This document shows, piece by piece, positions 17,291-56,495 of a stretch of DNA of 64,000 bases. This DNA comes from a virus. The translations under genes were made by a program, and so were the position numbers. The notes beneath the pieces are model-generated. The model was not told the DNA's origin, made no database searches, and was given only the letters and a program-made list of their open reading frames with translations. The stretch lies in IMG/VR virus record IMGVR_UViG_3300009008_000003; one strand, 5' to 3'. Every line of letters starts with the position of its first letter. Position 1 is the stretch's first letter.

Positions 17291-17761
17291 ATGTCCGTTC
17301 CAACAGAATATCAAAACACTGTAGATAGATTTCGCAGGTGGTTAAATGATACCCCGGCGCTAAATCAGTTGCTTGGCGTAGAAGAGAGCTCAGACGAGTA
17401 TTTGTATGAAGCTCTAGAAGACGCCATTGATGAGGTAAACAATGAGTGGGGCTTTGAATCTAGCTATACGATAGGTAATTTTCCTAATTATAGTTTACTT
17501 AAATATGGAGCAGCTTTACAAGTGCTGATGGGTAAAGGTATTTTATCTGCCAGAAATACTCTGACATACAGAGATGCTGGTGGAATTCAAATATCCGATC
17601 TGGATACCTATGCACGCTATATGCCTATTTTTAATCAAATTATGCAGAAATGGGTTACTGGTATGCAGAAGACAATACGTAAAATAAACGTAGAAGGTGC
17701 ATACGGCGGTGTTGGTACAGAGCTTGAACAAGAAAGCTGGGATGGAAGAACGTGGTACTAA
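17291..17761 (+). CDS. Head-tail adaptor/neck protein (putative)
   Basis: Helical 156-aa protein, first structural gene after the MCP block. Confidence 0.5.
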   Translation: MSVPTEYQNTVDRFRRWLNDTPALNQLLGVEESSDEYLYEALEDAIDEVNNEWGFESSYTIGNFPNYSLLKYGAALQVLMGKGILSARNTLTYRDAGGIQISDLDTYARYMPIFNQIMQKWVTGMQKTIRKINVEGAYGGVGTELEQESWDGRTWY

Positions 17762-18522
17762 TAGAGGATCTGACTGTTCATGCCATAGGTGCTGACAGTT
17801 TATATTTAACTTTTACTCCTATAGCGGTAAATGGGGAAGATTTAGACGCATGGGACCTCTATGTACAGCGAAGCGAAATTAACACACCCAGCGGCCTCTA
17901 TTGGACCACTATAGCCACTATAAGTGGTAGTTGTACAGATTATACGGACACCAGCATATCTGGAGTGAATTTTAACCAGTTTAGAGACATTTGGTATAGG
18001 CTTCAGCCTAGCGGTTTTGATGCATGTGATCATGATGCTATTGCGTACGATCCTGACAAATATGCACTCGAGATAATCAGGCGAGAAGCTATTGCGCTTA
18101 GAGCGGATTATGCGGGACAGCCTATTTGCGTTCTTAGGAAAAGAACTCTAGAACCTACGCGATGCACATCTTGTTGGGACGCTATACTACGACGTGTAAA
18201 TGATCCTGACTGCCCGGATTGTTATGGCACTGGTTTTGTTTCTGGTTATTATTCTGCTATTAGCGGGCTTGCTACTATAACTGCGGCTTCTAGAGTAAAA
18301 CAGATGACACAGTTTGGTGAATTTGATCAATCTTATAAAGTTTTATATATGGGACCTTATCCGTTTATCTACCCGAGAGATATATTTGAAGACCAGATGG
18401 GCAGGCGCTGGAGAATAAATAAAGTTAATACAGTAGAGAAGAATGGACAGATTATTAACCAGTCTGCACAAGTTTCTGAGATAGACAGAGAAGACATAGT
18501 TTATACGATTGATATTCCGTAA
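17752..18522 (+). CDS. Head closure/neck protein with CxxC...CxxCxGTG Zn motif (putative)
   Basis: RCTSCWD...DCPDCYGTGFVSGY; GRRWRINKV; position after the adaptor. Confidence 0.5.
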   Translation: MVLIEDLTVHAIGADSLYLTFTPIAVNGEDLDAWDLYVQRSEINTPSGLYWTTIATISGSCTDYTDTSISGVNFNQFRDIWYRLQPSGFDACDHDAIAYDPDKYALEIIRREAIALRADYAGQPICVLRKRTLEPTRCTSCWDAILRRVNDPDCPDCYGTGFVSGYYSAISGLATITAASRVKQMTQFGEFDQSYKVLYMGPYPFIYPRDIFEDQMGRRWRINKVNTVEKNGQIINQSAQVSEIDREDIVYTIDIP

Positions 18523-19928
18523 TGGGCGCAGTAAAATCAGGTAATAATATATATGTCGAGGGTACTGGAAATACTCTTTCTGGTATTGTAGCCGATATAA
18601 ATGATACTGATTTTTTGGTAGAGACCAGTGCAGCTCCTTCTGGCGTGTATACAGTTAATTGTTCTACAACTAATAGATCCCTATACGTTCGTCCAAACGC
18701 AGAACTAATAATAGGTAGTGGGGAAGACTATTCCTTTAACGAAACATTAGAATATGATATAGGTGCAGCTAGTCGTGGACGCTTTTATGTTCAAGCCGGA
18801 GCCCATCTTAAAATGTATGGTGATACTACCATAGATTTTTCTAAAGATGGTACCGCTCCTTATTATGCCTATTTCTGGGGCGGGTTAACTGTAAGGGGAA
18901 ATGAAACTTATAAGCCTACTTGGAAAAATTTTTCCCGTGTTTATTTTTACGAGCAATCAGATACAGGCACTTATACCGATGATATCTGGGATGTAGATGG
19001 TATGAAGGTCGGTACGGGCTGTGCGTCTACTAACTATTTTGGTTTATTATATGGTATGGGTAAGGTAAGAGCTCATAGTTTTAAGAACATAGAATGCGAT
19101 AAAAATATAGGCCATACAACAGGCAATACCCATTATTTTTATTTAAATTATACTAGTCCATTTTGGCACAATGTTGTTTTCTCTGGCCTGACTTTTACTG
19201 ATGTATATTATGCTTTTCAGAATCTAACAGGCATTCCTATAAAACTGGAAGACTGCACTTGGACTAATACCGCTAGTTGGATAACCTATAATCATAGTTC
19301 TCCTGGTATGAGTCCATGGATAACTCAAAATGATTTTGACGGCACGGAGCCCAGGCAGCATGGTCAGCATTTTCAATTATTTAAAGGTTGCAATTTTGAC
19401 GATGCCGGTATTGGAAATTATGTAGAATGGGGGGCAGTTTGTGCTTTCGTAGACTGCACCTGGACTAACACAACATCTCCTGCGGCTGAAATTAGATATG
19501 ATGGTCGTATGATTATTTGGTCTGGTAATACCTGGAACGACGCCTCTAATCTTAACGCTAATTATGACGGGGCTGTTCTTTGGGTTAAATCTCTGAATTT
19601 AACAGTTGAAGACTCTCTGGGTACGCCAGTAGAAGGAGCAACCGTAGTAATAGAACAGAGTGACGGGCGAGAGTACTGGACATTTAAAACTAAGGCAAAT
19701 GGTAAATTAGATAATATATATGATATAGAGTGCGCATTACTAACGCACGAATATTATTATAGTGCTACGTCGTCTTATTTTTGGTCGAGTAGTGGTAACA
19801 GTACATATCATGATGTATCGGTATATAAAGATGGCTATATTCCAGTAACAAAACCTTACGCTATGGATATAGATAGAGAAGTTACTATTAAGCTGAGAAA
19901 AGTTAATAGCTTAAAGGTAGAGATGTAA
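18522..19928 (+). CDS. Virion structural protein, beta-helix-like with C-terminal Ig/carboxypeptidase-regulatory-like domain
   Basis: Repeated DCTW/GCNF beta-helix-like strands; LTVEDSLGTPVEGATVVIEQ...FKTKANG...YKDGY. Confidence 0.5.
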   Translation: MGAVKSGNNIYVEGTGNTLSGIVADINDTDFLVETSAAPSGVYTVNCSTTNRSLYVRPNAELIIGSGEDYSFNETLEYDIGAASRGRFYVQAGAHLKMYGDTTIDFSKDGTAPYYAYFWGGLTVRGNETYKPTWKNFSRVYFYEQSDTGTYTDDIWDVDGMKVGTGCASTNYFGLLYGMGKVRAHSFKNIECDKNIGHTTGNTHYFYLNYTSPFWHNVVFSGLTFTDVYYAFQNLTGIPIKLEDCTWTNTASWITYNHSSPGMSPWITQNDFDGTEPRQHGQHFQLFKGCNFDDAGIGNYVEWGAVCAFVDCTWTNTTSPAAEIRYDGRMIIWSGNTWNDASNLNANYDGAVLWVKSLNLTVEDSLGTPVEGATVVIEQSDGREYWTFKTKANGKLDNIYDIECALLTHEYYYSATSSYFWSSSGNSTYHDVSVYKDGYIPVTKPYAMDIDREVTIKLRKVNSLKVEM

Positions 19929-22900
19929 ATGAGATATCAAACAATAGGCGCAGGCGAATCTACTACTTTACTGGGCGAGTTAAGTACAGGCGATTCTCCG
20001 GAAATCACCATATATAATCTAGCTACAAGAACCGCTATAGCGCTTACACAAAGTGGGTGTGATGAACTTGAATCTACGGGTTGGTATTGCTATGATAGTT
20101 CAGGTATAGTAACCGCAGCCACCGAAAAGACAGAGTATCTATACTTAATGTCCGGTGACGCAGGAACATACCCAGGAAAATTTGTTGTGGGCGGTTACCC
20201 GGATACAATAAATACTTTAGCTACTTCAGGTGTAGTTGGGCAAATTCTCGAAGATACGGGCACTACCATCCCGGCTTTAATATCAGTTGTTGATGGAGTG
20301 GTAGACACTATTCTTGTTGATACCAACGCGCTAAATGATACAAAGATCCCTGATACTATATCTCTTGCTAATATCAATGCAGAGGTTGACACAGCTCTTA
20401 CCGATATACACCTTGATCACTTAATTGCGGCTGCACACGGGGATACTCCTGTGACTGGTTCTATTATAGCAAGTATGGTTGGAAATAATGGGGTCTGGGC
20501 TGGTTTTAGTACTAAGACTGATTCTTTGGAAATGATAGCTGAGGATACCCAGAATATAAAAACCAGATTACCTGCTGCCCTAACAATAGCCGGTAAAATG
20601 AATTCTGATGCAACAGCTATTTCAGGAGATTCTACGGCAGCTGCTAACCTTGAAGCTACCTATGACGGAACAGGCTACGCTGATTCATACGCACCTGCGC
20701 AACAGCAACAGTTAGAAAATATTGCTAACACAGGTGCAGCTATTAATACGGTTGCTGATAGTTTTACTCTAACGTCTGGAACAGTTATTGCTGGTACTTA
20801 TGAAGATACAGTAACATTGGATGGAACTTATCATCAAATAGAGGATGAGTCTGGTGACATAGAAGCCTACTATGAATTTGATGTAGGAGTTGATGGGGTT
20901 CCAACCTCTGTAACCTTTGTGGGAAGAGCAAACGGTAATAATGATGATATTAATATAAAGGCTTATCATTGGGATGATACTGACTGGGATCAGTGCGGGG
21001 TTATGTACGGTACATCCTTATCTTCGGATGATACACATACTTATACACTATTTACACGACATGTAGGCACGGGTGCGAATGTAGGAAAAGTTAGAGTTCA
21101 GGTGCAGGCTACTAGTCTTGTGTCAGCAGATCTTTATATTGATCAATTATTTTTATCTTATGCGGTTGTAAACAGATCGGTAGGTTACGCAGATGGTGCC
21201 ATCTGGGTTGATACTAATAATGGAACAGCTGGAACGACGGCTTTTATTCATGGCACAGCTGATAAGCCATGTTTAACTTGGCCCGATGCTCTTACTTTAA
21301 ACGCTACTTTGGGGTTCAATAGATTCCATGTTGCTAGTCAATCTTTTGTTCTTTTAACTGCCAACTCAGACGGGTATTATATAGATGCAGCAGAGGCTAC
21401 TATAGATCTTGGTGGGCAGTCTATAGCAGGAGCTTATATTTTTGGTGCTCTAATCAGCGGTGTTGCAACAGGCGATAACGCAAGATTTATAGACTGTAAA
21501 ATTGGAGAACTTACGGTTCCTCCTTGCGGTATGGGAAGATGCGGGTTTGGATATAATTCAGCAACCTTTACAGCAGCTAGTGCTGGACAATTTGTGTTTG
21601 TAGAATGCTTTTCAATGGTACCCGGGAGTGGAACACCTAACTTTAATTTTAGCGGTTTAGGAAGTACTACTGGTATCAATAATAGGGCATACACAGGAGG
21701 CTCGGCTTGGATACTAGACGACGACTGTACTATTTCAAACGAACCTCTTGCAGGCGGGGGTCAGACATTTACTACAAACGGAGCAAATGTAGAACTTCGT
21801 GGTATTTTTCGGTCAGCCACTTATCATGTTGATGGTGCTGCAGGAACTATTCAGCAAGTAGGTGTTACTGGTCCTATAACTATAGATGGAACTGGTACAA
21901 CAACTATTAATCTATATGGGGTGTCAGCAAGTGTTACAGATACAAGTATAGGTACAACGGTTAATGACGAAACTGTAAATAATACACTTATAGCTGCATC
22001 TGGTGAGTACACTGCAGCCCTGACTACTATCCAAGCTGATCTGGATAATCCTGATCAATACAAAGCCGATGTATCTGCTTTAGCTGCTTCAGGAGTTGTA
22101 GGACAAATCCTGGAAGATACAGGAACAACTCTACCGGCCAGTCTATCTGATATAGAGACTGATACTCAGGATATTCAGAATAGTCAGATCAGTATTTCCG
22201 GAATGGTTGATGCAATAGATATCAGTTCTCTGGAATCAGATGTAACTGCTATCCTGGAAGATACAGGAACAACTCTACCGGCCAGTCTAGTAGCAATTCA
22301 GGCTGATCTGGATAATCCTGATCAATACAAAGCCGATGTATCTGCTTTAGCAGAAGAGGCTAGTATTTCAGGTATTATAGTATACGAACACGAAACAACA
22401 AAGACTTATTTATCTGGTGTAACCGCAAATGAAGGCGGTGGCAGTGCGCCAACTGCGGGGGAAGTAGCAGATGCTGTTTGGGTAGATCCAGAGGCCGTGA
22501 TTGTAATATCAGGTGTAGTTTATAGCGGAATCGACAATGCTAATTTAGCGCCAGCTAGTGAATACGATTCAGAGCTAACAGCTATTCAAGCAGATTTGGA
22601 TAATCCGGGTCAGTATAAGGCAGATATAACAGCCCTAGCTACTTCAGGAGTTGTAGGGCTTATACAAGAAGATACAGAATATATACAAACTGTTGTCGAT
22701 AATATTGAGACAGATACGCAAGATCTACAAAGTACTCTAAGTACTCCAGACAGTTTTAAAGCGGATGTAACTGCTTTGGCTACTTCCGGTGTTGTAGGTC
22801 AAATTTTAGAAGATACGATAGATATTCAAAGCACTGTAAACGACATAGAATCTGATATTATTACAGTTCAAGCAGACTTGGATAACCCCGATCAGTATAA

Positions 22901-23387
22901 GGCTGATGTGACAGCTTTAGCTACATCTGGTATTTTAGGACAAGTACAAGAAGACACAGAAGATATTCAAAGCACTTTAAGCACCCCAAATAACTTCAAA
23001 GCTGATGTTTCTGCATTAGCCCTTGAGGCTAATATTTCTGGCTATGTAGCAGATGCTATTAATGTATACGATCCGCCTACGCGCACGGAGGCCACATCTG
23101 ATAAAGATGAAATTATTACAGATATATCAGAACTTGAGACATCTCTTTCTGGGGTAATAACCATAGACAATGGTAGTTTAGAGACGACACTATCAGGAAT
23201 TATGGTTACCAATACTAGCGGCATTGAAGGTATGGTTATAGATCTTAGAGACGAGGCTCTGGGTAAATGGGTGCTAGATACCGGCGCTGGAACATTAACT
23301 TATTATAGAATGGATGGGGTCACAGTGCTAAAAACATTTACTTTGACAGGAGATGTTACCTTGTATACGGGAAGAACCCCACAATGA
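19929..23387 (+). CDS. Long acidic fibre-like virion protein with internal tandem repeats
   Basis: 1152 aa, very low K/R; six ~35-40-aa QADLDNPDQYKADVxALAxSG-type repeats. Confidence 0.6.
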   Translation: MRYQTIGAGESTTLLGELSTGDSPEITIYNLATRTAIALTQSGCDELESTGWYCYDSSGIVTAATEKTEYLYLMSGDAGTYPGKFVVGGYPDTINTLATSGVVGQILEDTGTTIPALISVVDGVVDTILVDTNALNDTKIPDTISLANINAEVDTALTDIHLDHLIAAAHGDTPVTGSIIASMVGNNGVWAGFSTKTDSLEMIAEDTQNIKTRLPAALTIAGKMNSDATAISGDSTAAANLEATYDGTGYADSYAPAQQQQLENIANTGAAINTVADSFTLTSGTVIAGTYEDTVTLDGTYHQIEDESGDIEAYYEFDVGVDGVPTSVTFVGRANGNNDDINIKAYHWDDTDWDQCGVMYGTSLSSDDTHTYTLFTRHVGTGANVGKVRVQVQATSLVSADLYIDQLFLSYAVVNRSVGYADGAIWVDTNNGTAGTTAFIHGTADKPCLTWPDALTLNATLGFNRFHVASQSFVLLTANSDGYYIDAAEATIDLGGQSIAGAYIFGALISGVATGDNARFIDCKIGELTVPPCGMGRCGFGYNSATFTAASAGQFVFVECFSMVPGSGTPNFNFSGLGSTTGINNRAYTGGSAWILDDDCTISNEPLAGGGQTFTTNGANVELRGIFRSATYHVDGAAGTIQQVGVTGPITIDGTGTTTINLYGVSASVTDTSIGTTVNDETVNNTLIAASGEYTAALTTIQADLDNPDQYKADVSALAASGVVGQILEDTGTTLPASLSDIETDTQDIQNSQISISGMVDAIDISSLESDVTAILEDTGTTLPASLVAIQADLDNPDQYKADVSALAEEASISGIIVYEHETTKTYLSGVTANEGGGSAPTAGEVADAVWVDPEAVIVISGVVYSGIDNANLAPASEYDSELTAIQADLDNPGQYKADITALATSGVVGLIQEDTEYIQTVVDNIETDTQDLQSTLSTPDSFKADVTALATSGVVGQILEDTIDIQSTVNDIESDIITVQADLDNPDQYKADVTALATSGILGQVQEDTEDIQSTLSTPNNFKADVSALALEANISGYVADAINVYDPPTRTEATSDKDEIITDISELETSLSGVITIDNGSLETTLSGIMVTNTSGIEGMVIDLRDEALGKWVLDTGAGTLTYYRMDGVTVLKTFTLTGDVTLYTGRTPQ
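22035..23030 (+). repeat. Intragenic direct repeats
   Basis: Identical 50-bp pair 22035-22084/22302-22351 and 39-bp pair 22107-22145/22251-22289; more diverged copies to ~23030. Confidence 0.85.
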
Positions 23388-23845
23388 TAATTACCAAGGG
23401 TTATGGAGTAAATACACTAATTACACAGGGCTACGGAGGCTCTGCTAGTGAGTTTATACGAGAAGTTCTACGCTTAGCTTCTGTATTAACTCGTAATACT
23501 GTGAAGGTTGCTTCTTTAAAAATGTCAAACACACTGACTAGTGCAATGAAAAAAGTGGATACAATGACTAGCGCTATTTATAATGACGATGTTATGGCCC
23601 AATCATCTTTAAAACGTTTTTTTATTAATACTTCTTTTATTAAAGATGAAACCAGGCAAACCATTACAAGAGAATATACTGTTTCATTAATTACCAGTTC
23701 AATAATGGATGAGGTTTCAAAAACTTCATCTTTATCCAGAAGATCTATATTATCTTCTACCTTAGATAGAGAGCCTGCTGAAAGCTCTTCTACAGATACA
23801 CGTTATATTACAAAGACTTCTGCGATAGACTTAGAGGAGATTTAA
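23384..23845 (+). CDS. Ser/Thr-rich hypothetical virion protein
   Basis: N-terminal ITKGYG/ITQGYG duplication; coupled to neighbours. Confidence 0.5.
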   Translation: MIITKGYGVNTLITQGYGGSASEFIREVLRLASVLTRNTVKVASLKMSNTLTSAMKKVDTMTSAIYNDDVMAQSSLKRFFINTSFIKDETRQTITREYTVSLITSSIMDEVSKTSSLSRRSILSSTLDREPAESSSTDTRYITKTSAIDLEEI

Positions 23846-24130
23846 ATGAGTAAAATATATGTAGGCGATGTTGGAACAGTTATATTAGTTAATATGGGTG
23901 AAGATATATCGGGTGCTACTACTACTAATTTAATAGTGCTTAAACCTGGGGACTCTACTGAATATACTTGGTCCGGCTCAGTATATAACGATAACTATTT
24001 GAAATATACAACGTTATCTGGTAATATTAGTGTAGAAGGTGAATATAAATTACAACCTTATATAGTCTTGTCAACTTGGTCTGGAAAAGGGGAAACGGTT
24101 ACTATACGCGTTTACGATGAGTTCGAATAA
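23846..24130 (+). CDS. Small Ig-like baseplate/fibre-associated protein (BppU N-domain-like)
   Basis: IYVGDVGTVILVNMGEDISGAT...KPG...W...LKYTT...GEYKLQPYI. Confidence 0.5.
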   Translation: MSKIYVGDVGTVILVNMGEDISGATTTNLIVLKPGDSTEYTWSGSVYNDNYLKYTTLSGNISVEGEYKLQPYIVLSTWSGKGETVTIRVYDEFE

Positions 24131-27100
24131 ATGAAAATAAAGAGTACACAATTATCTCAGACATGGAATCATCTTGGAGATTTCTGGGGCAAATTTGAAG
24201 ATAGAGATATTGTAGACAATTGGTGGGAAGCCGCCATGTCAGCTATAACTGACATGTACAAAAAAAGTTACTGGACAAGCTACAGTAGAAGTATTAAATA
24301 TTTAGATCCAATCATTAGTGGTTTGGATTATTATTTTCCTGTTTATTATGGCGACACAATTCCTTCTATGTCTGGGTTACTTAACATTAATGTTAGCGGT
24401 GAATACAATCCTGGTATCGGTTCTATATTAAACATAGATAGTCTTGTAAATGTATATTACCAGAACGAAGAGAATCCGTTTACTGAAGAAGTTATAGAAA
24501 GTGGAACACAATATAATTTAAGCACCAATAGAGAATACATAACTTTTGAAGACCACGAAACCGATTTAACCACCAATGCTAATCAGTCCAACATAAATTA
24601 TTCCATGCTTTATGCATCTGGAACTTCTATAATAAATCCTTTCTTATTTAATTATTGGGGTAGGTTAGTAGACGTTGATATAAATAATTATTTAGACGGA
24701 GATTATAATAGCTATTTAACAAGTATAAATAGCCGCCTTTGCACAACAAATGAAAAAGATTTAATTTTTTATAAATACTTTATATGGGCATTAATACATT
24801 TACGTAAAAAAGCCTATACTTTAGATACCATTGAAAACCTATTAGGCATTTCTTATGGCTTGCCGTTCGCATTCGAAAGCGGCGTAGTAACAGATATAAG
24901 TGCCAGCGGAGACGATACCGCTATTACAATCTCAGGCGAACTTGGTAACATTGTATATACCATCCCAAATATAGTAGATAATTATATCATCTTGGGAGAA
25001 GATGACGCAGTAGATACATTCCAATTATTGGTATCTGGATTTATTTTGGACGATTATATTTCTGATTTATCTTTGATAGATACCTACGCTAGTGGTACTG
25101 CTAGGAAATTTAGTACATTAGTTTTAACCATACCATCAGCGTTAAGCGGCTTGTCGTATAAAGAAACTATAGCAAGCGGTGTGGTGGAAGACGTTATTGG
25201 TGAAGGTGTTCAGTTATTTTATTATAACCCATTAACTGCGTTTGAAGGTTTCCTAGAGGAAGAAAGTGCGCTGGATTTTGGAGCTACTTATTCCGGGGAA
25301 ACTACCTTTAGACAAGCTTTGTACTTATCTAATCTATCGTCTAATGCTTTAGATGATATAACGTACGAATTCTCTAATTCAGATTTCTCGTGTGAAGCAA
25401 CTGTACCATCAGGTCTAGTAGCTAGCGGCGAAATAGTAGTACCTGTAGTCTTTACTCCCTCTTCTTTGGGACGAAGTACGACAGATCTAACCGTAGAGTA
25501 TACCACCGGTAGTGTTGATTATTATAATACATTTACAGACGTGGCAGTTGGCAGCGGCATCTCCGCTGACACTCTTAGCGGCGTATTTGTAGCTACTACA
25601 GGGGATAATGATACCGGAGATGGTACAAAGGCCAATCCGTATGCTTCTGTTTGTACAGGTATATTTAATGCTAATTTAGGCGATACTGTTTATATTAGAG
25701 AAGGTACCTATGCGGAGGAAATAAGAGATATATTACCTAACAGTGGCACCAGTTGGGGGAGCGGCTTATCGGTATGGGGGTACCCCGGCGAGACGGTGGA
25801 AATTAGACCAGATATAACGCCTACTGGTTATGCAGTATTAGTTGATAGTGGTTGTGCTTATATAGACTTTTATAATATTCATTTTAACGCAGTAAACATG
25901 CAAGATTACGGAAGAGCGGCCTCTAATAATGGTTATGCTCATCATATAACCTATTCAGGTTGTATTTTTGAGGGCAGCTTAGTGGCGAGCGGCTCGGTAT
26001 TCTCTAGCTATGCTCACCACCTGAATCTTATTGACTGCGAACTATATAATGCTACTAGCCATGCTATTTATCTAGCAGGTTCTAGAACAGTAGGTTATGC
26101 CGCTTCTAGCGGGTTAATTGATAATTGCTATATTCACAATGTTGGAAAATATGGGATTCATTGTAATAATGAAGATCGCCCTGCTGAAGGTTCTCATCCT
26201 GACGAGAGTTGGGAACATACAGTTACGATGAATGACAATATATTCCGAAATAACAGAATAGAGTATTGCGCAAGTGGAAGTGCAATCATATTTGCGGGGG
26301 CTAGGCGCGCACAAGCATATAACAATGTTATCAACAACTGTTATGGCGGTGTATATTTTACATGGAGTAGAAATTATGATTGTGAGGTTTATAATAATAC
26401 CATTGCCCCTACCGGGAGGGCAGGTATCTATATAGATAATTACCGCACTAATGGTGCTATTATATACAATAATATAATAGGCTCTGGTTATACTGACGAT
26501 GGCTTCGGATCAATATCCGAATATAATGTATCGGGGGCATTAGACGCAGATATAAAAAATAATTTACTGCAAACCGACTATAGAGTAGATGGAGTAATAT
26601 CCGGGGTAGATGCTTCCAATATTATAGAAGCAGATCTTGGGGTTGCTGAAGAGGAGAGCAATGTTTATACTCTTAATCCTACCTCCTCTGGCATAGATGC
26701 AGGATATAATGTAAGTACGGTCCGTATACCTGATTATTATGGCAGAGTGCCAAAAGGCGATGGTTACGACTTAGGAGCCTTTGAATTTGAGGCAGATTTA
26801 GTTTATATAACAGGAGCTACTTATGTTTTAACTGTTGATGCTGAGCAAGACATAAGCCATACCAATGAGCACACAGCTAGTGGTGCTTTTAGATCCATAG
26901 ATGCACGCTACGCCGACATAGTTGCTTCTGGCTATGAAACTATCAATATAACTTTCGCAAAAGAAGACTTTACCGGCGAAGATAATCTTAATCGAATACA
27001 CCTTCCTTCGGGCGGTACAGTCCCCATAACTATTCAGGGTACAGGCGCAGAGGCTGGGAATAGAACCAGATTAACAGCTGTGACAACTTTGTCCGGAATA

Positions 27101-30100: not shown

Positions 30101-30118
30101 TTCTTGGATGAGGCTTAA
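24131..30118 (+). CDS. Large baseplate/tailspike-like protein: ~470-aa N-domain plus right-handed beta-helix (pectate lyase-like) domains
   Basis: 1995 aa; VATTGDNDTGDGTKANPYAS...GDTVYIREGTY (DUF1565-like), YNNVI/YNNTI repeats, YDLGAFEF end motif, second beta-helix region. Confidence 0.65.
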   Translation: MKIKSTQLSQTWNHLGDFWGKFEDRDIVDNWWEAAMSAITDMYKKSYWTSYSRSIKYLDPIISGLDYYFPVYYGDTIPSMSGLLNINVSGEYNPGIGSILNIDSLVNVYYQNEENPFTEEVIESGTQYNLSTNREYITFEDHETDLTTNANQSNINYSMLYASGTSIINPFLFNYWGRLVDVDINNYLDGDYNSYLTSINSRLCTTNEKDLIFYKYFIWALIHLRKKAYTLDTIENLLGISYGLPFAFESGVVTDISASGDDTAITISGELGNIVYTIPNIVDNYIILGEDDAVDTFQLLVSGFILDDYISDLSLIDTYASGTARKFSTLVLTIPSALSGLSYKETIASGVVEDVIGEGVQLFYYNPLTAFEGFLEEESALDFGATYSGETTFRQALYLSNLSSNALDDITYEFSNSDFSCEATVPSGLVASGEIVVPVVFTPSSLGRSTTDLTVEYTTGSVDYYNTFTDVAVGSGISADTLSGVFVATTGDNDTGDGTKANPYASVCTGIFNANLGDTVYIREGTYAEEIRDILPNSGTSWGSGLSVWGYPGETVEIRPDITPTGYAVLVDSGCAYIDFYNIHFNAVNMQDYGRAASNNGYAHHITYSGCIFEGSLVASGSVFSSYAHHLNLIDCELYNATSHAIYLAGSRTVGYAASSGLIDNCYIHNVGKYGIHCNNEDRPAEGSHPDESWEHTVTMNDNIFRNNRIEYCASGSAIIFAGARRAQAYNNVINNCYGGVYFTWSRNYDCEVYNNTIAPTGRAGIYIDNYRTNGAIIYNNIIGSGYTDDGFGSISEYNVSGALDADIKNNLLQTDYRVDGVISGVDASNIIEADLGVAEEESNVYTLNPTSSGIDAGYNVSTVRIPDYYGRVPKGDGYDLGAFEFEADLVYITGATYVLTVDAEQDISHTNEHTASGAFRSIDARYADIVASGYETINITFAKEDFTGEDNLNRIHLPSGGTVPITIQGTGAEAGNRTRLTAVTTLSGIQDYFDTNHAGWRDYMATGVIWDWGKFTSDDYSPLGSGERFRPYPYKTADEIGFMPYVEYSGAYRWDFDAEEHVWEAFDGYTILFFPAFSYSSHRAYTQVESPVVINKSTGEVFDQYYYSSLRVDSGLVYPQLQHPCSTFWQDDEYQEVTPWMFTPLGSGETHKLIYYHPGSTSVAASGIFSNINTYSLWLYWRGQYLKISGGVDPDDHYDFAWNGTSDGYDAPGSDEEKYAAYRDAWIISGNAQNLTIRNIDFYGPLSANFLSLGKINDWGNIYGFNADDDYHNYPGGGTGDSHGIIRMEPARTESGNTLDSIAIPSGITFSDVSIAGTYVGLVGWATDLTINDCNFSGVVNYGLRIGNTGPVTYGSYDPVGEEWEYNHDMLRNLNMTNCNFFNIGIHGCRISDFSGGVLDGLTFSGMLSSWAPITSQWGFQGGFQAMRCSGVHILDSYFEDVAFQMGGVDMVMSGCTLHDTLPESVQPLVFQIGGPGFPGDHWGSDQTSWRINTNRIIDSCNFLDCIGDVLFEGSPASNYPDGVIIDNSGVTFINNFIRGKQWNVESVITGKGTSSPSEHDYTGKVDTGNPPLWVSDTHGFTMSGNVIVGGDPIAWDAYDNTKSLFPTIALFDGVSEFKIQDNKFAYGLGAINFTPYSGARYFGGIGPGIIENNTFYNMSWYYLGFNLRPWVHLTRTGNSGFVEYDDRPDISPNDVLAGAYFGVKGHAGDPYNMLSGYAHDQLQISNNKFIYQPADCPEWSGQALNYYGTDWSLYPRTSNVENSGLTHLPVLFDVKAYDSSFSSSVSGVFGDFPYYDELIWECGAAALQPLDQLANKDRPYPINSGSTFTDNVTYGMSGNYSTWIEYRPSGYYYTQISGTWYPPFDGYASNYGGGVHAYTFTVGEPYDEFLALASGNVYWFRGPTPYPDRYQFGTSAYLTYTGTGTYTAIPQYDRVRTDPKDLTTYPSMPTVSGLFYYLDNENEGDFVGTGNTVSGTITFTSTDVNNASFLDEA

Positions 30119-30120
30119 TA

Positions 30121-32802: not shown

Positions 32803-32804
32803 TT

Positions 32805-33503
32805 ATGGGTTTATTTACGCCAATAAAATCTACACTTTGCCCGGATGTGTTTAATAAACAAGACAAATTAAACACGTATGTACGCAAAGTATTGATGCAG
32901 GGAGCTTTAACTATAGTGGCGCAAGAGCATATAGGTGGCATTTTCCTTCGTGGTTCTGTTATAGATTATAAATGGTCGGCCACCTCTGATATAGATGTTA
33001 ATGTATTGCTTAAACAGGAATATGCCGAACTTAAACCGCAGTATCATAAATTATCCAAATTGGCTAGTGGTAAAGCATTTATTAAAAGTCATCCAATTAA
33101 CTATTTTGTAGATATAATGCCAGATGAATGGAACATGGTGCATCTACGTCGATTATACGACGTATTGAATAACAAATGGGTAGCTAAGCCCTTGCGTGCA
33201 AATGCCATAACTCGCGAGAAGGCACTAGAAATTGCTTCACCTATTGCTAGTATAGCGGCTGGTAATTCTGAGCTACAAATAGACCAACTTGCAGCAGCAA
33301 TTAGGTCTGGTAATATGGATAGAATTTTACACGAGGCAAAAGACGTAAAAGATTTTTATAAAAAATTGGACAGATTACGCAAGCGTGGTTATAATATAGG
33401 AGCAGGCACACAATCTTATCAGAATGCTTTGTATAAGTATGTGGAGCACGAAGGTAAATATCCTGGCTTGTTAGGAAAGCTTTACGAGCTGCTTAGGAAA
33501 TAA
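32805..33503 (+). CDS. Pol-beta-superfamily nucleotidyltransferase
   Basis: LRGSVIDYKWSATSDIDVNV (GS-x10-DxD) plus a candidate third Asp in PINYFVD. Confidence 0.7.
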   Translation: MGLFTPIKSTLCPDVFNKQDKLNTYVRKVLMQGALTIVAQEHIGGIFLRGSVIDYKWSATSDIDVNVLLKQEYAELKPQYHKLSKLASGKAFIKSHPINYFVDIMPDEWNMVHLRRLYDVLNNKWVAKPLRANAITREKALEIASPIASIAAGNSELQIDQLAAAIRSGNMDRILHEAKDVKDFYKKLDRLRKRGYNIGAGTQSYQNALYKYVEHEGKYPGLLGKLYELLRK

Positions 33504-33506
33504 ATA

Positions 33507-34859
33507 ATGTCAAACGAAGTTGTAGAACGCTATAAAAAATCTAGACAGGGCTTACTAGTTGTAAGACCTACTGGGTCTGGTAAGACCAGGCTTGCCCTTA
33601 AAGCTACCCGCGAAGCGCCCAAGAACACTGTCGTAGGCACAGCTTCTTTGACTAAGAATTTTACTAACGAAGAACTAAAGGTATTCAAAAAAGAGACGCC
33701 TAGAAAAGTTACAACTTATTCTAGCGTAGCTAGAGGAAAAGAGCTGGCTGGTGGTGATAATTTAATACTAGATGAATCTCATTATATAAGGAATCCTCAA
33801 ACTAGTACTGCTAAAAACTTAAAAGAACAAAGAAGCAAGTATAATAAGGCGCTTCTTTTAACAGCTACTCCAATAGTTAATGAGCCCTATGACTTAGCTT
33901 CACAAGTTAATTTGGTAGCAAACCGTGAGGTAATGCCAAAAATAAGAAAAGAGTTTTATAATAAGTATTATAAGGATGTTCGTGTAAAACCGGGTATTTG
34001 GGGCAGATTACTGGGAGTTAAATCTGGTACTGTCCGGAAGTTAAGAAGCGCCGATAAAGTAAGATCAGATGCGGCTCATTTGGTGGATATTGCTCCTAAG
34101 AAAGAGTTTGAAAAGTATATGCCTAAGACAAAGCATGAAAAAGTTCACGTGCCAATGTCTTCAGAACAAATTAAATTATATAAGTATGTAGAAGGCAAAC
34201 TGCCGTATCATATACGCTATAAAATTAAAAAAGGCTTACCACCCTCAAAGACTGAAGCCAAGAATTTAAATGCTTATATGTCTGGTTTACGGCAGACCTC
34301 GAATACCACAGCCAATTTTGTTAAAGGCGATGTAAAGCCCGTTAGCTCTAAAATGGATAAAATTATAGACGATATACAGGCAGAAGTTAATAAAAAAGGT
34401 AAGGTGATTACTTATTCTAATTTCTTGGGTTCTGGAACCAGCAGGATCAAATCCAGATTAGATGCTAAGGGCATAAGTTATAGCGAAGTGCATGGAGCAC
34501 TAAGCAAAAAAGAACGTGCTGCACAGGTAAAGAAATACACAGATAAGAATAAAACGAACGTATTTGTATTTAGTGGCGCTGGTTCAGAGGGTATTAATTT
34601 ACCTAAAACCACTATGGTTCAAATAACAGAACCACACTGGAACAATGCTCGTGTATATCAGGCGGCTTCTCGTGGAGTTCGTAGAGGAGACGATCCTAAT
34701 AGAACAGTAAATGTTAAGCATTATTTATCTACGTTTCCTAAATCAAGGTTAAACAGGATGGGATTTGGTAAACCTAGAAAATCTGCAGACCAATATTTAC
34801 ATGAATTAAGTCAGCGTAAAAAAGAAGAATCGGCCAATATATTGAAAGCTTTGGAATGA
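33507..34859 (+). CDS. SF2 (SNF2-like) helicase/ATPase
   Basis: PTGSGKT, LILDESH, LLTATP, AGSEGINL, QAASRGVR. Confidence 0.85.
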   Translation: MSNEVVERYKKSRQGLLVVRPTGSGKTRLALKATREAPKNTVVGTASLTKNFTNEELKVFKKETPRKVTTYSSVARGKELAGGDNLILDESHYIRNPQTSTAKNLKEQRSKYNKALLLTATPIVNEPYDLASQVNLVANREVMPKIRKEFYNKYYKDVRVKPGIWGRLLGVKSGTVRKLRSADKVRSDAAHLVDIAPKKEFEKYMPKTKHEKVHVPMSSEQIKLYKYVEGKLPYHIRYKIKKGLPPSKTEAKNLNAYMSGLRQTSNTTANFVKGDVKPVSSKMDKIIDDIQAEVNKKGKVITYSNFLGSGTSRIKSRLDAKGISYSEVHGALSKKERAAQVKKYTDKNKTNVFVFSGAGSEGINLPKTTMVQITEPHWNNARVYQAASRGVRRGDDPNRTVNVKHYLSTFPKSRLNRMGFGKPRKSADQYLHELSQRKKEESANILKALE

Positions 34860-36190
34860 AAGAATACGCTCCAGGACTTCCTAACTCCAAGATAACCACA
34901 CCTGTTCCGTTATCTACTTATAAAACATGGGATTATACTATACAGAAACATCAGGCCGACAAGGCTGGGCTACACTATGATTTGCGTATTGCTAGCCCTG
35001 CTGGCGTAGCTCATTCTTGGGCAACTCGTAATTTGCCCGTTCCCGGGCAAAAAGTGCTTGCTGTAGAGCAGCCAGACCACACTGTTGAATATATGAAATT
35101 TTCAGGTAACCTAAAGGGCGGTTATGGAAAAGGACGTGTAGACGTAATAGAAGCTGGAAAAATGGAAGTATTGGAATCCAGCTCTGGTAAAATTGTTTTT
35201 AATATTTATAAAGGGGCGGACACACAACGTTATGTGTTGCTAAGAACGAATGGTAAGAATTGGCTTTTCTACAATACGACTAATACGAGAGATCGTGTCA
35301 AAATACCAGACAAGAAGAGGTCTTATAAAGAAATAAAAATAGAGGATTTAGACCCAAATAAACCTGACACGATATGGTCTCCTAAAATAGACGGTGCTCA
35401 TAATCTCTTTTACTTAAAAAAAGGTCGTCGACCCGAAGTCTTCTCGTACAGAGTATCGAGAAGGGATAAGAATAAGCTCATAGAGCATACTTATAAAACT
35501 GATCTTTATAAGCAAAGGGTTCCAGATTCGCTCGGGGAAACAATTCTCCGGGGTGAACTATATGCCACAGACGAAAGAGGCAAAGTAAAGACCAGCGCGG
35601 AAACTGCCGGAATACTTAACTCAAATGTTTGGAAAGCCCGATCCGGAAAGCTATCCGGAAATTTCCGGGTAGAGCACGTTGTATTCGATATAGACAAGTA
35701 TCGTGGCAAAGATGTAAGCGATGCCCCTTATAGCCAGAAACTTTTAATGCTTAAAGAGGTGCAAAAGGAAATGCCTGCTATTAAATTGGCACCTATGGTA
35801 TCTACTCCTGCACAGAAGGAACATCTTTTAAAGAACATAAAAGCAGGTACTAATCCTTTAAGCCGTGAGGGCATAATTGAAATTGATTTAAATAAATCAA
35901 CGCCAATTAAAGCTAAAATAAAAAAAGATATAGATGTATTTGTAGTTAGTGTATTTTCAGGTTCTGGTAAGTATTCAGGCAACGCGGCTGGTGGGTTTTT
36001 GGCGTCTCGTACGCACGGAGGCGCGGCTACTATAAGAGTTGGCAGCGGCTTTACAGATGCTGAACGGATACATATGTGGAACAACCGCACAAAATACGTT
36101 GGGCGATTAGCAAAAATAGAGATTCAAGATGAGCTGCCATCCGGAAAAGTGCGTGCTCCGGTGTTTAAAGAATGGCGTAGCTATATCTAA
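34856..36190 (+). CDS. LigD-type 3'-phosphoesterase domain fused to an ATP-dependent DNA ligase
   Basis: IQKHQADKAGLHYDLRI...HSWA...QPDH...GYGKG (PE domain); SPKIDG, LRGELY, VFDI, EGII, and OB-fold VGSGFTD...RAPVF. Confidence 0.85.
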   Translation: MKEYAPGLPNSKITTPVPLSTYKTWDYTIQKHQADKAGLHYDLRIASPAGVAHSWATRNLPVPGQKVLAVEQPDHTVEYMKFSGNLKGGYGKGRVDVIEAGKMEVLESSSGKIVFNIYKGADTQRYVLLRTNGKNWLFYNTTNTRDRVKIPDKKRSYKEIKIEDLDPNKPDTIWSPKIDGAHNLFYLKKGRRPEVFSYRVSRRDKNKLIEHTYKTDLYKQRVPDSLGETILRGELYATDERGKVKTSAETAGILNSNVWKARSGKLSGNFRVEHVVFDIDKYRGKDVSDAPYSQKLLMLKEVQKEMPAIKLAPMVSTPAQKEHLLKNIKAGTNPLSREGIIEIDLNKSTPIKAKIKKDIDVFVVSVFSGSGKYSGNAAGGFLASRTHGGAATIRVGSGFTDAERIHMWNNRTKYVGRLAKIEIQDELPSGKVRAPVFKEWRSYI

Positions 36191-36195
36191 AAAAC

Positions 36196-36223
36196 TTGAC
36201 AAAGTCTAGTAAATTCGTATACT
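36196..36223 (+). promoter_or_regulatory. Sigma70-type promoter for the tail terminator/sheath/tube genes
   Basis: TTGACA-16 nt-TATACT. Confidence 0.65.
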
Positions 36224-36235
36224 TAACAAGTAGAG

Positions 36236-37363
36236 GTGCATACTGTGAGCGTGGTAATAGATGTAAAACATAAAATCTTGTCATTTTTACAGACTTACTT
36301 CGCGAATAAGAGTAGTGCCTATCCGTGGTCTTCGACATATTCTCAAAGTAAGATTGTAATTGCAGATAAATTTGCAGTAGATTTAGAGTCTATTCAAAAG
36401 AAACCTGCGATTATAATGGCTCGTGGCCAAACTCGTTGGGCTAAGCTTACGCTAGATCAGCGAGATTCTTCTAGTATAACTACTCACGATAAGGTCTTTA
36501 AAGACTTGGTGAGGGTGTCCTTTACCTTAAATGTATTAGGTAAAAATGGAATAGCGCTAGAAAATATAGCTGGTACTTTATTTGATATTTTAGTTGGGTA
36601 TAAAGACGTCCTAAAGGAAGTTGGAATACACCAAATCAATGCCATTGAGGTTGGCCAAGAAGAGGCTGTACAGGTTACTTCGGAAATTGATTTAACTAGG
36701 GTACCTGTTAGTGTAGTTGTTTCTATGGCTAGGAAAGTATCTTCTTACGAGGATTTTTTCTGCTCTACGGTAACAGCTTCTGGTGAAACTTTGCCAGAGA
36801 CAGAAAAAGTTGACTATGATATAGTTGGCCAAACTATTGTTTTTTATACAGCGTCTGGCGTGGAAGGTGAAGAAACATATTCTATAAATTATTTAGATAA
36901 TGTGGATCTTTCAGAGCATACAGAAACGTTAGCTCCATCAGGAGTAGGTTATTATCTACCATTAACGTTTCCAGCTTTTGCAAGCTCTGGAGTTGAAGTT
37001 AGGGCTTCTAATTCTTCTGCCGTGGATCATATAGAATATTTAATTAGTGGAAATTATATAACCACTATAGAAAATCCATCAGATGCTACCGAAATAACAA
37101 ATATTAAATTAGCCAGTGGGTATGTAGTTGGCTTGCCAAGCGGTGTAACCGCTGATAATATTTATGATGTATTTAAAGTAAATTATTATTTAGATGCTGA
37201 TACTCACGTACAACGATATATACTATTAAGATCGGGTACAGTAGATTATGCCGGTTCTGGTATTTATGGTGATTATTACGCGGGTAGTTGGGGATATGAC
37301 TCAGATGAAACACTTTCTACTTATACTTATGTGAGTGGTATAGTAGGAGTTATTAGTAATTGA
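36236..37363 (+). CDS. Tail completion/terminator-like protein with an appended Ser-Gly-rich acidic C-terminal domain
   Basis: GTG start after GAGG; position directly before the sheath; 10 SG dipeptides, all in the C-terminal half. Confidence 0.5.
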   Translation: MHTVSVVIDVKHKILSFLQTYFANKSSAYPWSSTYSQSKIVIADKFAVDLESIQKKPAIIMARGQTRWAKLTLDQRDSSSITTHDKVFKDLVRVSFTLNVLGKNGIALENIAGTLFDILVGYKDVLKEVGIHQINAIEVGQEEAVQVTSEIDLTRVPVSVVVSMARKVSSYEDFFCSTVTASGETLPETEKVDYDIVGQTIVFYTASGVEGEETYSINYLDNVDLSEHTETLAPSGVGYYLPLTFPAFASSGVEVRASNSSAVDHIEYLISGNYITTIENPSDATEITNIKLASGYVVGLPSGVTADNIYDVFKVNYYLDADTHVQRYILLRSGTVDYAGSGIYGDYYAGSWGYDSDETLSTYTYVSGIVGVISN

Positions 37364-37382
37364 TTAAAATAGGAGACTTATA

Positions 37383-39017
37383 ATGTCTTATACAAAACCA
37401 GGTGTTGAAATTACCCAGGTTCAAAAAACTGTCTCTCCAAATCTGCAGGCACCTGCTTTACCTGTAGGGTTGATTGGTCCCGGTTATTATATAAGCCATG
37501 TCGTTGAAAATCCTGAATCTGCATTTATGCATAATGGTATAACTGTGGCTGGTACGGGTAGGCATACTATTGATTTAGAGGCTATCCGAACAAGTGGTTT
37601 AACTGATATGCCATCTGGATTAACAGCGCCAGATGCAATTTATGCTGGAGTATACGTAACCAATGCCGCTGCTGGCAGTTCTTACGCACAAACTATGATA
37701 CCGGTTATTTCTGGAACAACTTGCGATACTTTTGAGTATGATTCTGACGAAGAGCATTTTGTGATTTCCGGATTAGCGGGGGTTACTTCTGGTTTAGTTT
37801 ATATAGGATTCCGTTCTTTGCGTAACGACCAGGCAGGAGATGTAATAGAGTTTGATAGTGCTGATAAGATTGAATATAAATTAGGAGCTATATCAGTATT
37901 TAACCCATTGGCAAAAGCTGCTTATTTAGCTATGCAAGCTGCCGGTTCTTCGGTGTATGGCTTTGCTATTAGTGGACTTACAGCGGGTTATTGGACAGGA
38001 GGAGTTGGCGTAGGTAGTGGAAAATATGAAAATGTGGAAGCGTATAGTATGGTGCCCCTTACCCAGGCGGCTACCCAAACTACTGAAGTAGAATCTCATT
38101 GCACAAGCATGTCAACTGCCGCGAATAAAAAAGAACGTATTATGATTTATAGTCATGAGCTAACAGATACTGGTACAGCTAGTACGTGGGCTACGGCTAT
38201 AGCTTCTTATGCAGGCTCAGTCATGAATAAACGTTCTATTCACGTATGGCCTACTGTCATGTACATACGAGAGAGATTATTTAGTGCTCAATACAAGCCT
38301 TCTTATATTTCTTCGTACATGCAGCCGGTTCCTGAAACTACTCCTAGCACAACAATGCAGTATACTAACGCGCTGTTAACCGGTAATTTAACCCTAGCAG
38401 ATGGCACAAAGTATTATAAGGGTGAAGCAATTACAGCTGCTAATTGGAGCGGCCTATTCGCTGAATACCCATTCTTAACAGTAGATGTACCAGTACCTGG
38501 TTGGTATGGGGCAGCTATTGTAGCAGGCCAAATTGCTGGAGAGAACCCGGAGCAAAGTTTAACTAACTTACCCGTTCTCGGCATTAGCAAGCTAAAATAC
38601 GTTGCTGACCATTTCTCAGAATCACAATTGAACACAATTGCTGGCGGCGGTAATTACTTGTTCTGGCAAGCTAATGAGTACACTAGAGTAGTGTGTAGAC
38701 ATCAACTTTCTACAAATACAATGAGTACTGAAACAAAAGAACTTAGCATAACTAAGACAATTGATTATGTATCTAAGTTTGTTAGAACCTCATTGTTACC
38801 GTTCGTGGGAAGATGGAACATAAACGATAATTTAATTTCAATAGTATTCTCTCATATGAACGCAATCGGAGAATATTTAAAGAATAACGGAACAGTAGAC
38901 GACTTTGTGGTTGAGAAGGTAGAACAGGACGCTAATCAAAAAGACGTTCTAAGAGTTACCATAAACGTAAAACCACTTTATCCTGCTAATTACATCCGTG
39001 TAACTTTAACATTTTAA
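37383..39017 (+). CDS. Contractile tail sheath protein
   Basis: 544 aa; C-terminal RHQLST...ELSITKTIDYV...FVGRWNI...VTINVKPLYPANYIRVTLTF sheath pattern. Confidence 0.8.
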   Translation: MSYTKPGVEITQVQKTVSPNLQAPALPVGLIGPGYYISHVVENPESAFMHNGITVAGTGRHTIDLEAIRTSGLTDMPSGLTAPDAIYAGVYVTNAAAGSSYAQTMIPVISGTTCDTFEYDSDEEHFVISGLAGVTSGLVYIGFRSLRNDQAGDVIEFDSADKIEYKLGAISVFNPLAKAAYLAMQAAGSSVYGFAISGLTAGYWTGGVGVGSGKYENVEAYSMVPLTQAATQTTEVESHCTSMSTAANKKERIMIYSHELTDTGTASTWATAIASYAGSVMNKRSIHVWPTVMYIRERLFSAQYKPSYISSYMQPVPETTPSTTMQYTNALLTGNLTLADGTKYYKGEAITAANWSGLFAEYPFLTVDVPVPGWYGAAIVAGQIAGENPEQSLTNLPVLGISKLKYVADHFSESQLNTIAGGGNYLFWQANEYTRVVCRHQLSTNTMSTETKELSITKTIDYVSKFVRTSLLPFVGRWNINDNLISIVFSHMNAIGEYLKNNGTVDDFVVEKVEQDANQKDVLRVTINVKPLYPANYIRVTLTF

Positions 39018-39034
39018 ATAAAGGAGTAATATAA

Positions 39035-39664
39035 ATGCCATTAGATAATGATTATCCAGCAGTAAGTGATTGGACGCAGACATTTACTTCTAGACATGTG
39101 GATTCGGATGTAGAGGACGGGGAATTTATTTCCGGTGAATCTATCGTTGTTGCTGCTTTACAAGATGACGGTAATCCACAAAGTCCGGCTGAATATATTG
39201 CTATTGGTTTGTTAGAAACTGGACAACTTAGACAGGATAAACAGATTCAACAACTTTTCGAGTTGGGGTCTGCCTTGCCTTATTTCGTACCAGGTCATAC
39301 TATGATTTCTATGTCATTAAACAGAGTTATGTTTAATGGTGAATCTCTATTAAGAGTTTTATATGGTGATCGTAGCGCTACTGGCATAAACCCAGCTCCC
39401 GGAGCTCAGTTAAGTCTGCACGACGATAGGCAAGTTGGGTTTTATGTGAATTTAGCTTCTACGTTCTTTAATTCACCTACTACTCTTGGTTTTTTCATGT
39501 GTGATAACAATAATAACTTCGTTGGAGGCTTTGGTCTCGAAGGCTGTTATGTACAAAGCCATGTTTTAGCATTCAGTAGCAGGCAAGTTGTCATTGCAGA
39601 AAACGTTGCTATTAGGGCAACTAAGTTGATTGGATTCAGCACTGCGGTGCCTTCGGGTACTTAA
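39035..39664 (+). CDS. Tail tube protein (putative)
   Basis: Follows the sheath; QQLFELGS...ISMSLNRVMF...LEGCYVQSHVLAF tube-like pattern. Confidence 0.65.
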   Translation: MPLDNDYPAVSDWTQTFTSRHVDSDVEDGEFISGESIVVAALQDDGNPQSPAEYIAIGLLETGQLRQDKQIQQLFELGSALPYFVPGHTMISMSLNRVMFNGESLLRVLYGDRSATGINPAPGAQLSLHDDRQVGFYVNLASTFFNSPTTLGFFMCDNNNNFVGGFGLEGCYVQSHVLAFSSRQVVIAENVAIRATKLIGFSTAVPSGT

Positions 39665-56494: not shown

Positions 56495-56495
56495 A

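Follow-up and report, generated by a model that had tools for sequence, protein, structure and literature searches.

In animal proteoglycans, Ser-Gly is the glycosaminoglycan attachment site, on which xylosyltransferase acts. Turn motifs of other kinds recur in beta-solenoid and fibre proteins, including the Asn ladders of pectate-lyase-fold helices and the VxGxxxxx repeat of the T4 gp5 needle. Among phages, O-glycosylation of the virion was reportedly found by Freeman et al. in 2023 in the mycobacteriophages Che8, Corndog, and Myrna, on capsid and tail-tube subunits. Virion glycosylation in mycobacteriophages is echoed in PMC11256854. For Aah and TibC, the heptosyltransferases of AIDA-I and TibA, recognition is proposed to depend on a structural strand-loop-strand arrangement and not on a linear sequon (PMC5000012, PMC4358343). 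Here, we describe a strong excess of the Ser-Gly dipeptide (SG) in the tail proteins of an uncultured phage (IMG/VR record IMGVR_UViG_3300009008_000003), analysed in a stretch of 64,000 nucleotides (hereafter, the window). Because nothing was found to tie SG to the phosphonate and sugar genes of this phage, we consider the dipeptide likelier to be a building motif than a sugar-attachment site.

The virus genome is complete according to IMG/VR, with a length of 189,182 bp and direct terminal repeats, and the window corresponds to genome bases 32869-96868. Its TerL is less than 30% identical to that of any cultured phage. Genes for the head, neck, and tail occupy the + strand of the window from about 330 to 39,664, and the − strand beyond them carries replication genes together with a sugar/phosphonate cluster. 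Coordinates below refer to the window unless marked as genome; G000 denotes this phage, and other G numbers denote the phage records compared with it.

Ser-Gly excess in the tail proteins

Each of the 74 translated open reading frames (ORFs) of the window was set against 1000 shuffles. In the pooled 13 ORFs within 17752-39017, enzymes included, SG occurred 161 times against 51 expected (z 15.9), whereas Gly-Ser (GS) occurred 45 times against 52 expected. The next most deviant dipeptide in these ORFs reached z 4.5, and NG, GG, and DG were depleted; the remainder of the window held 44 SG against 50 expected. For the eight tail-module proteins listed below, shuffling inside blocks of 10, 20, or 40 residues gave 145 SG against 44-47 expected (z 15.7-16.8), and the ratio of SG to GS was 145 to 38 (binomial p 6e-16). 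An earlier, sequence-only reading of this DNA had counted both dipeptides by hand and claimed an asymmetry beyond composition; its counts were all reproduced to within one, and the asymmetry was borne out, with no other dipeptide near SG.

Since z stayed at about 16 with local composition preserved, local composition and low complexity were ruled out as causes. Repeat amplification was rejected as well, because BLAST showed no internal repeats besides one paralogue pair, the only others being five short repeats in a fibre protein. These copies and the pair raise the count slightly, but 120 SG against 38 expected were still present when the paralogue was left out. All six Ser codons and all four Gly codons occur within SG as often as usual, and the excess of the nucleotide pattern [TCN/AGY]GGN is confined to frame 0 (145 occurrences, against 26 and 10 in the other frames). 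A DNA-level motif or codon effect was ruled out by these two results, which indicate that the bias is selected at the level of protein and not of DNA. That the excess is an artefact of composition, low complexity, a DNA motif, or repeat amplification is thus close to inconceivable.

A genome-wide scan revealed a second SG-rich block outside the window (genome 152921-164129), which encodes a baseplate wedge subunit, 770-aa and 520-aa proteins of unknown function, and a collagen-like fibre. The sequence-only reading had correctly placed an SG-rich block in the window and had missed this second one. In both tail blocks, 26% of the Ser residues are followed by Gly, against 6.5% in the remainder of the genome. 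The scan found no SG excess in a 2034-aa protein (8 against 9.0 expected), a 1069-aa Ser/Gly-rich protein (6 against 11), TerL (0), the portal protein (1), or any replication protein. The 2034-aa protein (genome 177231-183335, + strand), which lies outside the window, is kept throughout the clade with 41-46% identity.

Among the enzymes, the 609-aa polymerase contains 1 SG, the ligase 9, and the helicase 5. The sequence-only reading had raised the ligase and helicase as a caveat, and SG is indeed present in both. Its context there is basic and of a different kind (a GSGKT Walker A motif, SGK, and SGN), common to the orthologues of these enzymes (ligase orthologues carry 4-6 SG), so these sites do not belong to the motif described here. 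The genes concerned, with observed and expected counts, are as follows.

17752-18522, + strand: 256-aa neck or tail-junction protein; 6 SG, 1 GS, 0.9 SG expected
18522-19928, + strand: 468-aa tail protein; 7 SG against 3.2 expected, 1 GS; weak Pfam matches
19929-23387, + strand: 1152-aa fibre; 24 SG, 6 GS, 8.4 SG expected
23846-24130, + strand: 94-aa protein; 4 SG, 1 GS, 1.0 SG expected
24131-30118, + strand: 1995-aa giant tail protein with right-handed beta-helix segments; 61 SG, 19 GS, 18.2 SG expected (z 11)
30121-32802, + strand: 893-aa paralogue of residues 1-887 of the 1995-aa protein; 25 SG, 4 GS, 7.2 SG expected
32805-36190, + strand: block of nucleotidyltransferase, SF2 helicase, and LigD-type ligase; SG in basic context, outside the motif
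36236-37363, + strand: 375-aa protein preceding the sheath; 10 SG, 2 GS, 2.8 SG expected
37383-39017, + strand: 544-aa tail sheath (Pfam Phage_sheath_1C); 8 SG, 4 GS, 3.6 SG expected

In the 1995-aa protein, SG occurs once per about 32 residues, and in the 375-aa protein all 10 SG fall at residues 182-367, a C-terminal half that is largely a lineage-specific extension. No Pfam, PHROG, or PDB relative was found for the three largest SG-rich proteins except for a beta-helix segment; the 1152-aa fibre had no relative in any of the three databases. In this fibre, a repeat with LA[TA]SG[VI][VL]G at its centre (LATSGVVG type) is present five times. Its residues from about 700 to 1050 also form repeats of about 47 residues (...LDNPDQYKADVTALATSGVVGQILEDT...IETDTQDLQ...), which may be coiled-coil segments broken by an SG kink. 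A Pfam PEP_mutase match at residues 931-967 of the fibre was below threshold and is apparently spurious. Between the fibre and the 94-aa protein lies a gene for a 153-aa protein (23384-23845, + strand) with 24 Ser residues (16%) and zero SG.

Motif context and structural position

In both tail blocks, the SG sites share the consensus [P/L/I/A]-[V/T/A]-[I/A/M/W/P]-S-G-[L/V/I]-[V/T]-[Y/F]. Hydrophobic residues are enriched at positions -3 to -1 and +2 to +4, and D, K, R, Q, and P are strongly depleted; SG elsewhere in the genome lacks such a context. Residues of inward-facing type at -3 and -1, a beta-branched residue at -2, and L, V, or I at +2 fit a Ser that is the outward-facing last residue of a strand.

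Structural models point to similar positions. The AlphaFold2 model of the sheath, based on 23 sequences, had a predicted local distance difference test score (pLDDT) of 77 and matched solved sheaths. In this model, SG 110, 129, and 197 sit precisely at strand ends, where Ser closes the strand and Gly begins the coil; SG 136 is within a strand, 212 and 356 are within helices, and 71 and 78 belong to a loop modelled with low confidence. The variable domain (residues 60-220) contains seven of the eight sheath SG sites, 3.8 times the expected number, and the conserved core contains none. The model of the 893-aa protein, based on three sequences, was usable at residues 590-790 only. In its beta-helix part (pLDDT 45-80), most SG sites end a strand, with about five showing Ser last in the strand and Gly first in the coil, an arrangement seen at about half of the SG sites across the confident AlphaFold2 regions.

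SG sites are spaced about 23-25 residues apart in the helix segments, and the spacing over the whole 1995-aa protein is more even than chance, with a coefficient of variation of 0.61 against 0.96 +/- 0.11 for random placement (0 of 2000 random placements were as regular). The features of a turn motif, namely Ser last in the strand, Gly opening the turn, and hydrophobic flanks, were thus found in the flanking residues, in the models, and in the Gly/Ala columns of orthologues described below. The sequence-only reading had spoken of exposed x-S-G turns; the sites in the virion tail proteins do look outward-facing, at strand ends or in turns and loops, although some lie within helices.

Conservation and inheritance

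The 893-aa protein is 46-48% identical to residues 1-887 of the 1995-aa protein, and SG is kept at 15 of 28 sites, against 28% for dipeptides overall; several sites are displaced by one residue between the two paralogues. An orthologue of the 1995-aa protein (P0028, 51% identity) contains 49 SG against 14 expected (z 10) and 8 GS, and it retains 36 of the 61 SG sites, against a background of 30%. SG sites are therefore conserved about twice as well as background dipeptides (54-59% against 28-30%). The phage that encodes P0028 has a sheath 78% identical to that of G000. Homologue searches with the 893-aa and 1995-aa proteins returned only the two proteins themselves and P0028, and scans for further members of the extreme-SG lineage yielded only one 1-kb fragment, the clusters at 90% holding only the phage of P0002 and P0028. 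In this sister phage (P0002 contig, ENA ERZ24794647), DNA polymerase A is called as three pieces (355, 94, and 163 aa) separated by a gene for an HNH endonuclease, which suggests an intein or homing-endonuclease insertion that the 609-aa polymerase of G000 does not have.

For the neck, 375-aa, sheath, wedge, capsid, and ligase proteins, SG columns were compared with orthologues at about 30% identity. The second position was Gly in 41% and Ala in 14% of cases (55% together), and the first was Ser in 28% and otherwise Thr, Asp, Ala, Glu, or Gly, with 77% small or polar. A quarter of the SG sites in these proteins fall within lineage-specific insertions. The residues in the orthologue columns suggest that many SG sites are old turn positions at which this lineage settled on Ser. 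In four relatives, the orthologues of the 256-aa neck protein carry 2-4 SG against 0.7-1.5 expected, with two SG columns in common.

The strength of the excess follows relatedness. SG is at 3.3 times expectation in the 1995-aa protein and at 3.5 times in its orthologue; in five clade-wide tail proteins, it is at 2.8 times expectation in G000 against 1.4-2.0 times in four relatives. Members of the clade, defined by a full-length sheath match, show a moderate excess, with SG at 1.56 times expectation in the loci around the tail genes and at 1.28-1.40 times in the four genomes that are nearly complete. Farther away, the T4 tail, baseplate, and fibre proteins show no excess (73 SG and 70 GS against 70 expected, 1.04 times), nor do 122 large proteins (400 aa or more) from distant myovirus contigs (1.07 times expectation, SG/GS 1.04), and two whole distant genomes gave 1.25 and 0.93 times expectation. 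These three comparisons rule out a general property of tail proteins. The gradient indicates that the clade inherited the trait and that it was strengthened in the branch that contains this phage and its sister; the motif is retained and passed on with the protein families, and the excess is graded by ancestry and not by gene content.

Among 339 large proteins of relatives, only one exceeds z 5, a 492-aa protein of G015 with 18 SG (record 92927-94405, − strand; locus L102:12927-14405). Its SG sites belong to tandem, alternating units, TVVASGVDPF and TVILSGIEFT, spaced 14, 9, and 23 residues apart, and are plainly part of a structural repeat. Having no Pfam or PDB relative, the array may represent an undescribed fibre repeat.

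Phosphonate and glycan genes

The sequence-only reading had proposed that the SG serines are modified by a phosphonoglycan made by a gene cluster of the same window, which was tested as follows.

52831-63582, − strand: phosphonate and sugar gene cluster (Pfam assignments); examined as the candidate writer, with no link to SG found

The cluster comprises a cytidylyltransferase-PEP mutase fusion (PepM), a thiamine pyrophosphate-dependent decarboxylase (Ppd), an iron-containing alcohol dehydrogenase (Fe-ADH), and a TagF-like transferase, as well as GT2, GT8-like, DegT, methyltransferase, GDP-mannose dehydratase, and epimerase genes. The glycan genes run on past the window end (genome 96438-101523), with GT1-like, GT9-like (heptosyltransferase family), and GT2 genes and a putative rhamnosyltransferase. 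An 851-aa protein (genome 185163-187718) combines an N-terminal GT2 with a C-terminal GT1 domain and has no homologue in the four relatives.

PEP mutase was found in none of 37 sheath relatives, 18 of them at least 90% complete, and these PepM-free relatives have SG above GS all the same (SG/GS 1.28-1.61). Because the 10-kb flanks of PepM hold no large structural genes, whole records were required for the converse comparison, and the six PepM-carrying records that hold large structural proteins were used. Of these unrelated phages, G040, G041, and G043 showed a moderate asymmetry (SG/GS 1.48, 1.59, and 1.50), and G042, G044, and G046 showed none (0.98, 0.88, and 1.10). Proteins of 2057-2213 aa in G040, G041, G042, and G044, which are likened to the 2034-aa protein of G000 by length alone, have no SG excess. 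Across phages, there is no association between SG excess and PEP mutase, and the co-occurrence with the glycan cluster that the sequence-only reading had named as a check was not found among the 37 relatives and six PepM phages.

The PepM fusion itself (55211-56494, − strand) has homologues with 56-73% identity in at least 25 IMG/VR contigs, with GC contents of 28-47% (loci L127-L130 and L178-L206). Whole-record BLAST of G038, G040, and G041 showed only about 10 genes in common with G000, the TagF-like transferase not among them. Because unrelated carriers share only about 10 genes, the phosphonate module appears to be horizontally mobile among large uncultured phages.

No protein-directed glycosyltransferase was found, and G000 and the four relatives gave no TibC/Aah match at E <= 0.01. 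The GT9-like protein (271 aa) matches only models of lipopolysaccharide (LPS) heptosyltransferases, far under their cut-offs, and its best PDB matches were 3tov and 1psw, not TibC. BLAST revealed no glycosyltransferase common to the clade that has the SG excess. The GT2-rich distant phage G021 shows no excess; the relation between GT2 presence and SG is confounded by phylogeny. Searches of the literature returned no work on Ser-Gly in the tails of phages and none in which phosphonate genes of a phage act on the virion.

Interpretation of the motif

From the observed statistics, sequence context, conservation, and non-linkage to PEP mutase, we infer a structural role, and we favour, with roughly even confidence, the reading that the SG pairs are a lineage-inherited strand-end or turn motif, hydrophobic-S-G-[L/V/I]-[V/T], strongest in lineage-unique proteins. 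The phage would build exposed, beta-rich tail parts with this motif, in which Ser would be the final, outward-facing residue of a short strand and Gly would open a tight turn, once per coil in beta-helix segments. Purifying selection would keep the motif because it would fix turn geometry. It would be commonest in the giant proteins and fibres specific to this lineage, which probably consist almost wholly of short strand-turn units. The orthologue columns, with Gly or Ala second and a small or polar residue first, fit such turn positions.

Several observations weigh against this reading. The preference is for Ser only, with TG not enriched in the window tail block and NG and DG depleted, and a turn cap could use Ser, Thr, Asn, or Asp. 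Differing orthologues have Thr, Asp, Ala, Glu, or Gly in the first column, so that Ser seems to have been chosen afresh in this lineage. The excess also crosses unrelated folds (the sheath outer domain, neck, baseplate wedge, fibres, and beta-helix) and is about twice that of same-fold orthologues, which points to a lineage-wide pressure rather than to the need of one fold. Half of the sheath SG sites are off strand ends, two of them in confident helices and two in the low-confidence loop; the exposure of SG is inferred, and the model of the 893-aa protein is poor overall (pLDDT 39). The strict Ser, the unrelated folds, the two-fold surplus, and the helix and loop sites are not explained by geometry alone and leave some probability to a Ser modification.

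Such a modification, for which hydrophobic-S-G-hydrophobic would be the acceptor of a Ser-specific tail modification (glycosyl, phospho-type, or other) by an enzyme outside the phosphonate pathway, is in our analysis a serious but minority possibility. The enzyme would recognise a strand-loop-strand shape, as is thought for the AIDA-I/TibA heptosyltransferases; the E. coli O-glycosyltransferases are thought to read a structural arrangement and not a linear motif (PMC5000012). It would account for a bias that is Ser-specific, one-directional, and at the protein level, and that is confined to tail, baseplate, and fibre proteins, with none in TerL, the portal, the replication proteins, or the 2034-aa and 1069-aa proteins. 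The even spacing, the placement of seven of eight sheath sites in the variable domain (matched sheaths of 350-385 aa leave residues for an extra domain), and the turnover or one-residue shift of paralogue sites at preserved density point the same way, as do an excess across unrelated folds and above orthologues and the about nine genes with glycosyltransferase domains in the genome. However, no candidate writer emerged, the GT9-like protein being weakly like LPS heptosyltransferases and TibC/Aah being absent, and the clade that shares the excess has no glycosyltransferase in common by BLAST. The glycan genes share their strand with the replication genes, GT2-rich G021 has no excess, and the tandem repeats of G015 look structural. 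The fuller version, in which the outward Ser of SG corners would be modified by an unrecognised enzyme so as to coat the whole tail surface at about one site per 30 residues, is likewise a minority possibility.

Two further explanations appear improbable. If long-lived extracellular tail proteins avoided Asn-Gly (deamidation) and Asp-Gly (isomerisation), Ser-Gly could be the nearest stable substitute; consistent with this, the tail block has 19 NG against 35.6 expected and 32 DG against 42.9, with neither depleted in the remaining window, and NG numbers 3 against 13.6 expected in the 1995-aa protein and 5 against 12 in P0028. However, about 27 missing NG and DG stand against about 110 extra SG, explaining at most a quarter of the surplus, and much of the NG deficit is arithmetical because a quarter of all Gly residues are preceded by Ser. 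Moreover, Asn is rare at the SG columns of orthologues (4 of 156), and Thr, Ala, and Glu before Gly would be equally stable but are not enriched; chemical stability is thus an improbable cause of the bias. It is improbable as well that the PepM/Ppd/Fe-ADH/TagF-like/glycosyltransferase cluster makes a phosphonate-bearing glycan that the serines carry and that coats the virion. The cluster is real and complete-looking, G000 combines it with the strongest SG excess, and in the large proteins of the unrelated PepM phages G040 and G041 SG exceeds expectation by a factor of 1.5-1.7. Yet relatives in the clade retain more SG than GS in the absence of PepM, three of the PepM carriers have SG close to GS, and the occurrence of the fusion in contigs of unrelated phages, with the TagF-like gene shared by none of the three whole records, suggests that the module moves alone.

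A nucleotidyltransferase in the tail operon

Within the tail operon, 32805-33503 (+ strand) encodes a 232-aa nucleotidyltransferase of Pol-beta fold with the conserved motif GS...SDIDV. All four near-complete relatives have it, with 25-28% identity, and its PDB profile matches are weak (minimal nucleotidyltransferase, E 0.02; AMPylator DrrA, E 0.1). As a candidate SG writer it was set aside.

Significance and comparison with known systems

A three-fold, one-directional, and conserved dipeptide bias in the outer tail proteins only of one lineage is a strong sign of selection, and we know of no published rule that explains such a Ser-Gly bias. If it is structural, the motif would provide a simple sequence marker for strand-turn units in fibres that are poorly handled by family libraries and structure predictors. 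If it is a modification mark, it would point to a new virion-coating system, with a bearing on how stable the phage is, how it recognises its host, and how it escapes defences directed at the tail. The SG question is now separated from the phosphonate cluster, which needs another target.

Compared with the glycosaminoglycan site, the likeness goes no further than the dipeptide. The flanks are hydrophobic here, the acidic fraction within 6 residues is 0.108 against a background of 0.123, and Asp is underrepresented at -3 to -1. Only 7 of 214 SG sites read SGxG, and no xylosyltransferase-like gene was seen; the analogy drawn by the sequence-only reading thus fails. Nor do the tail proteins show any enrichment of the general Bacteroidota O-glycosylation motif D-[S/T]-[A/I/L/V/M/T] (43 against 48.4 expected), and DSG occurs only three times. 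AIDA-I and TibA, hyper-glycosylated autotransporters of beta-helix type whose heptosyltransferases form the BAHT family (TIGR04414), come closer, having many serines along a beta-helix at strand-loop-strand positions; in the giant proteins, SG is placed at strand ends of the modelled beta-helix. However, G000 has no TibC/Aah homologue and no 19-residue repeat, and its motif also occurs in non-helix proteins. Mycobacteriophages exemplify the known case of a phage whose own glycosyltransferases modify its virion; their glycosylation, reported for capsid and tail-tube subunits, is not known to follow a dispersed dipeptide motif across fibres, whereas the present case is known from sequence alone.

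In the BAHT type, acceptor serines belong to short loops that join short strands of a beta-helix; in the beta-helix part of the 893-aa model, SG lies at strand ends (pLDDT only 45-80), and other sites are in helices and loops. The ladders of beta-solenoids are similar in placing a small residue and Gly at the same corner of successive coils, with hydrophobic neighbours facing inward. Whereas T4 shows no SG excess, in this phage one dipeptide recurs over many unrelated tail proteins at three times expectation.

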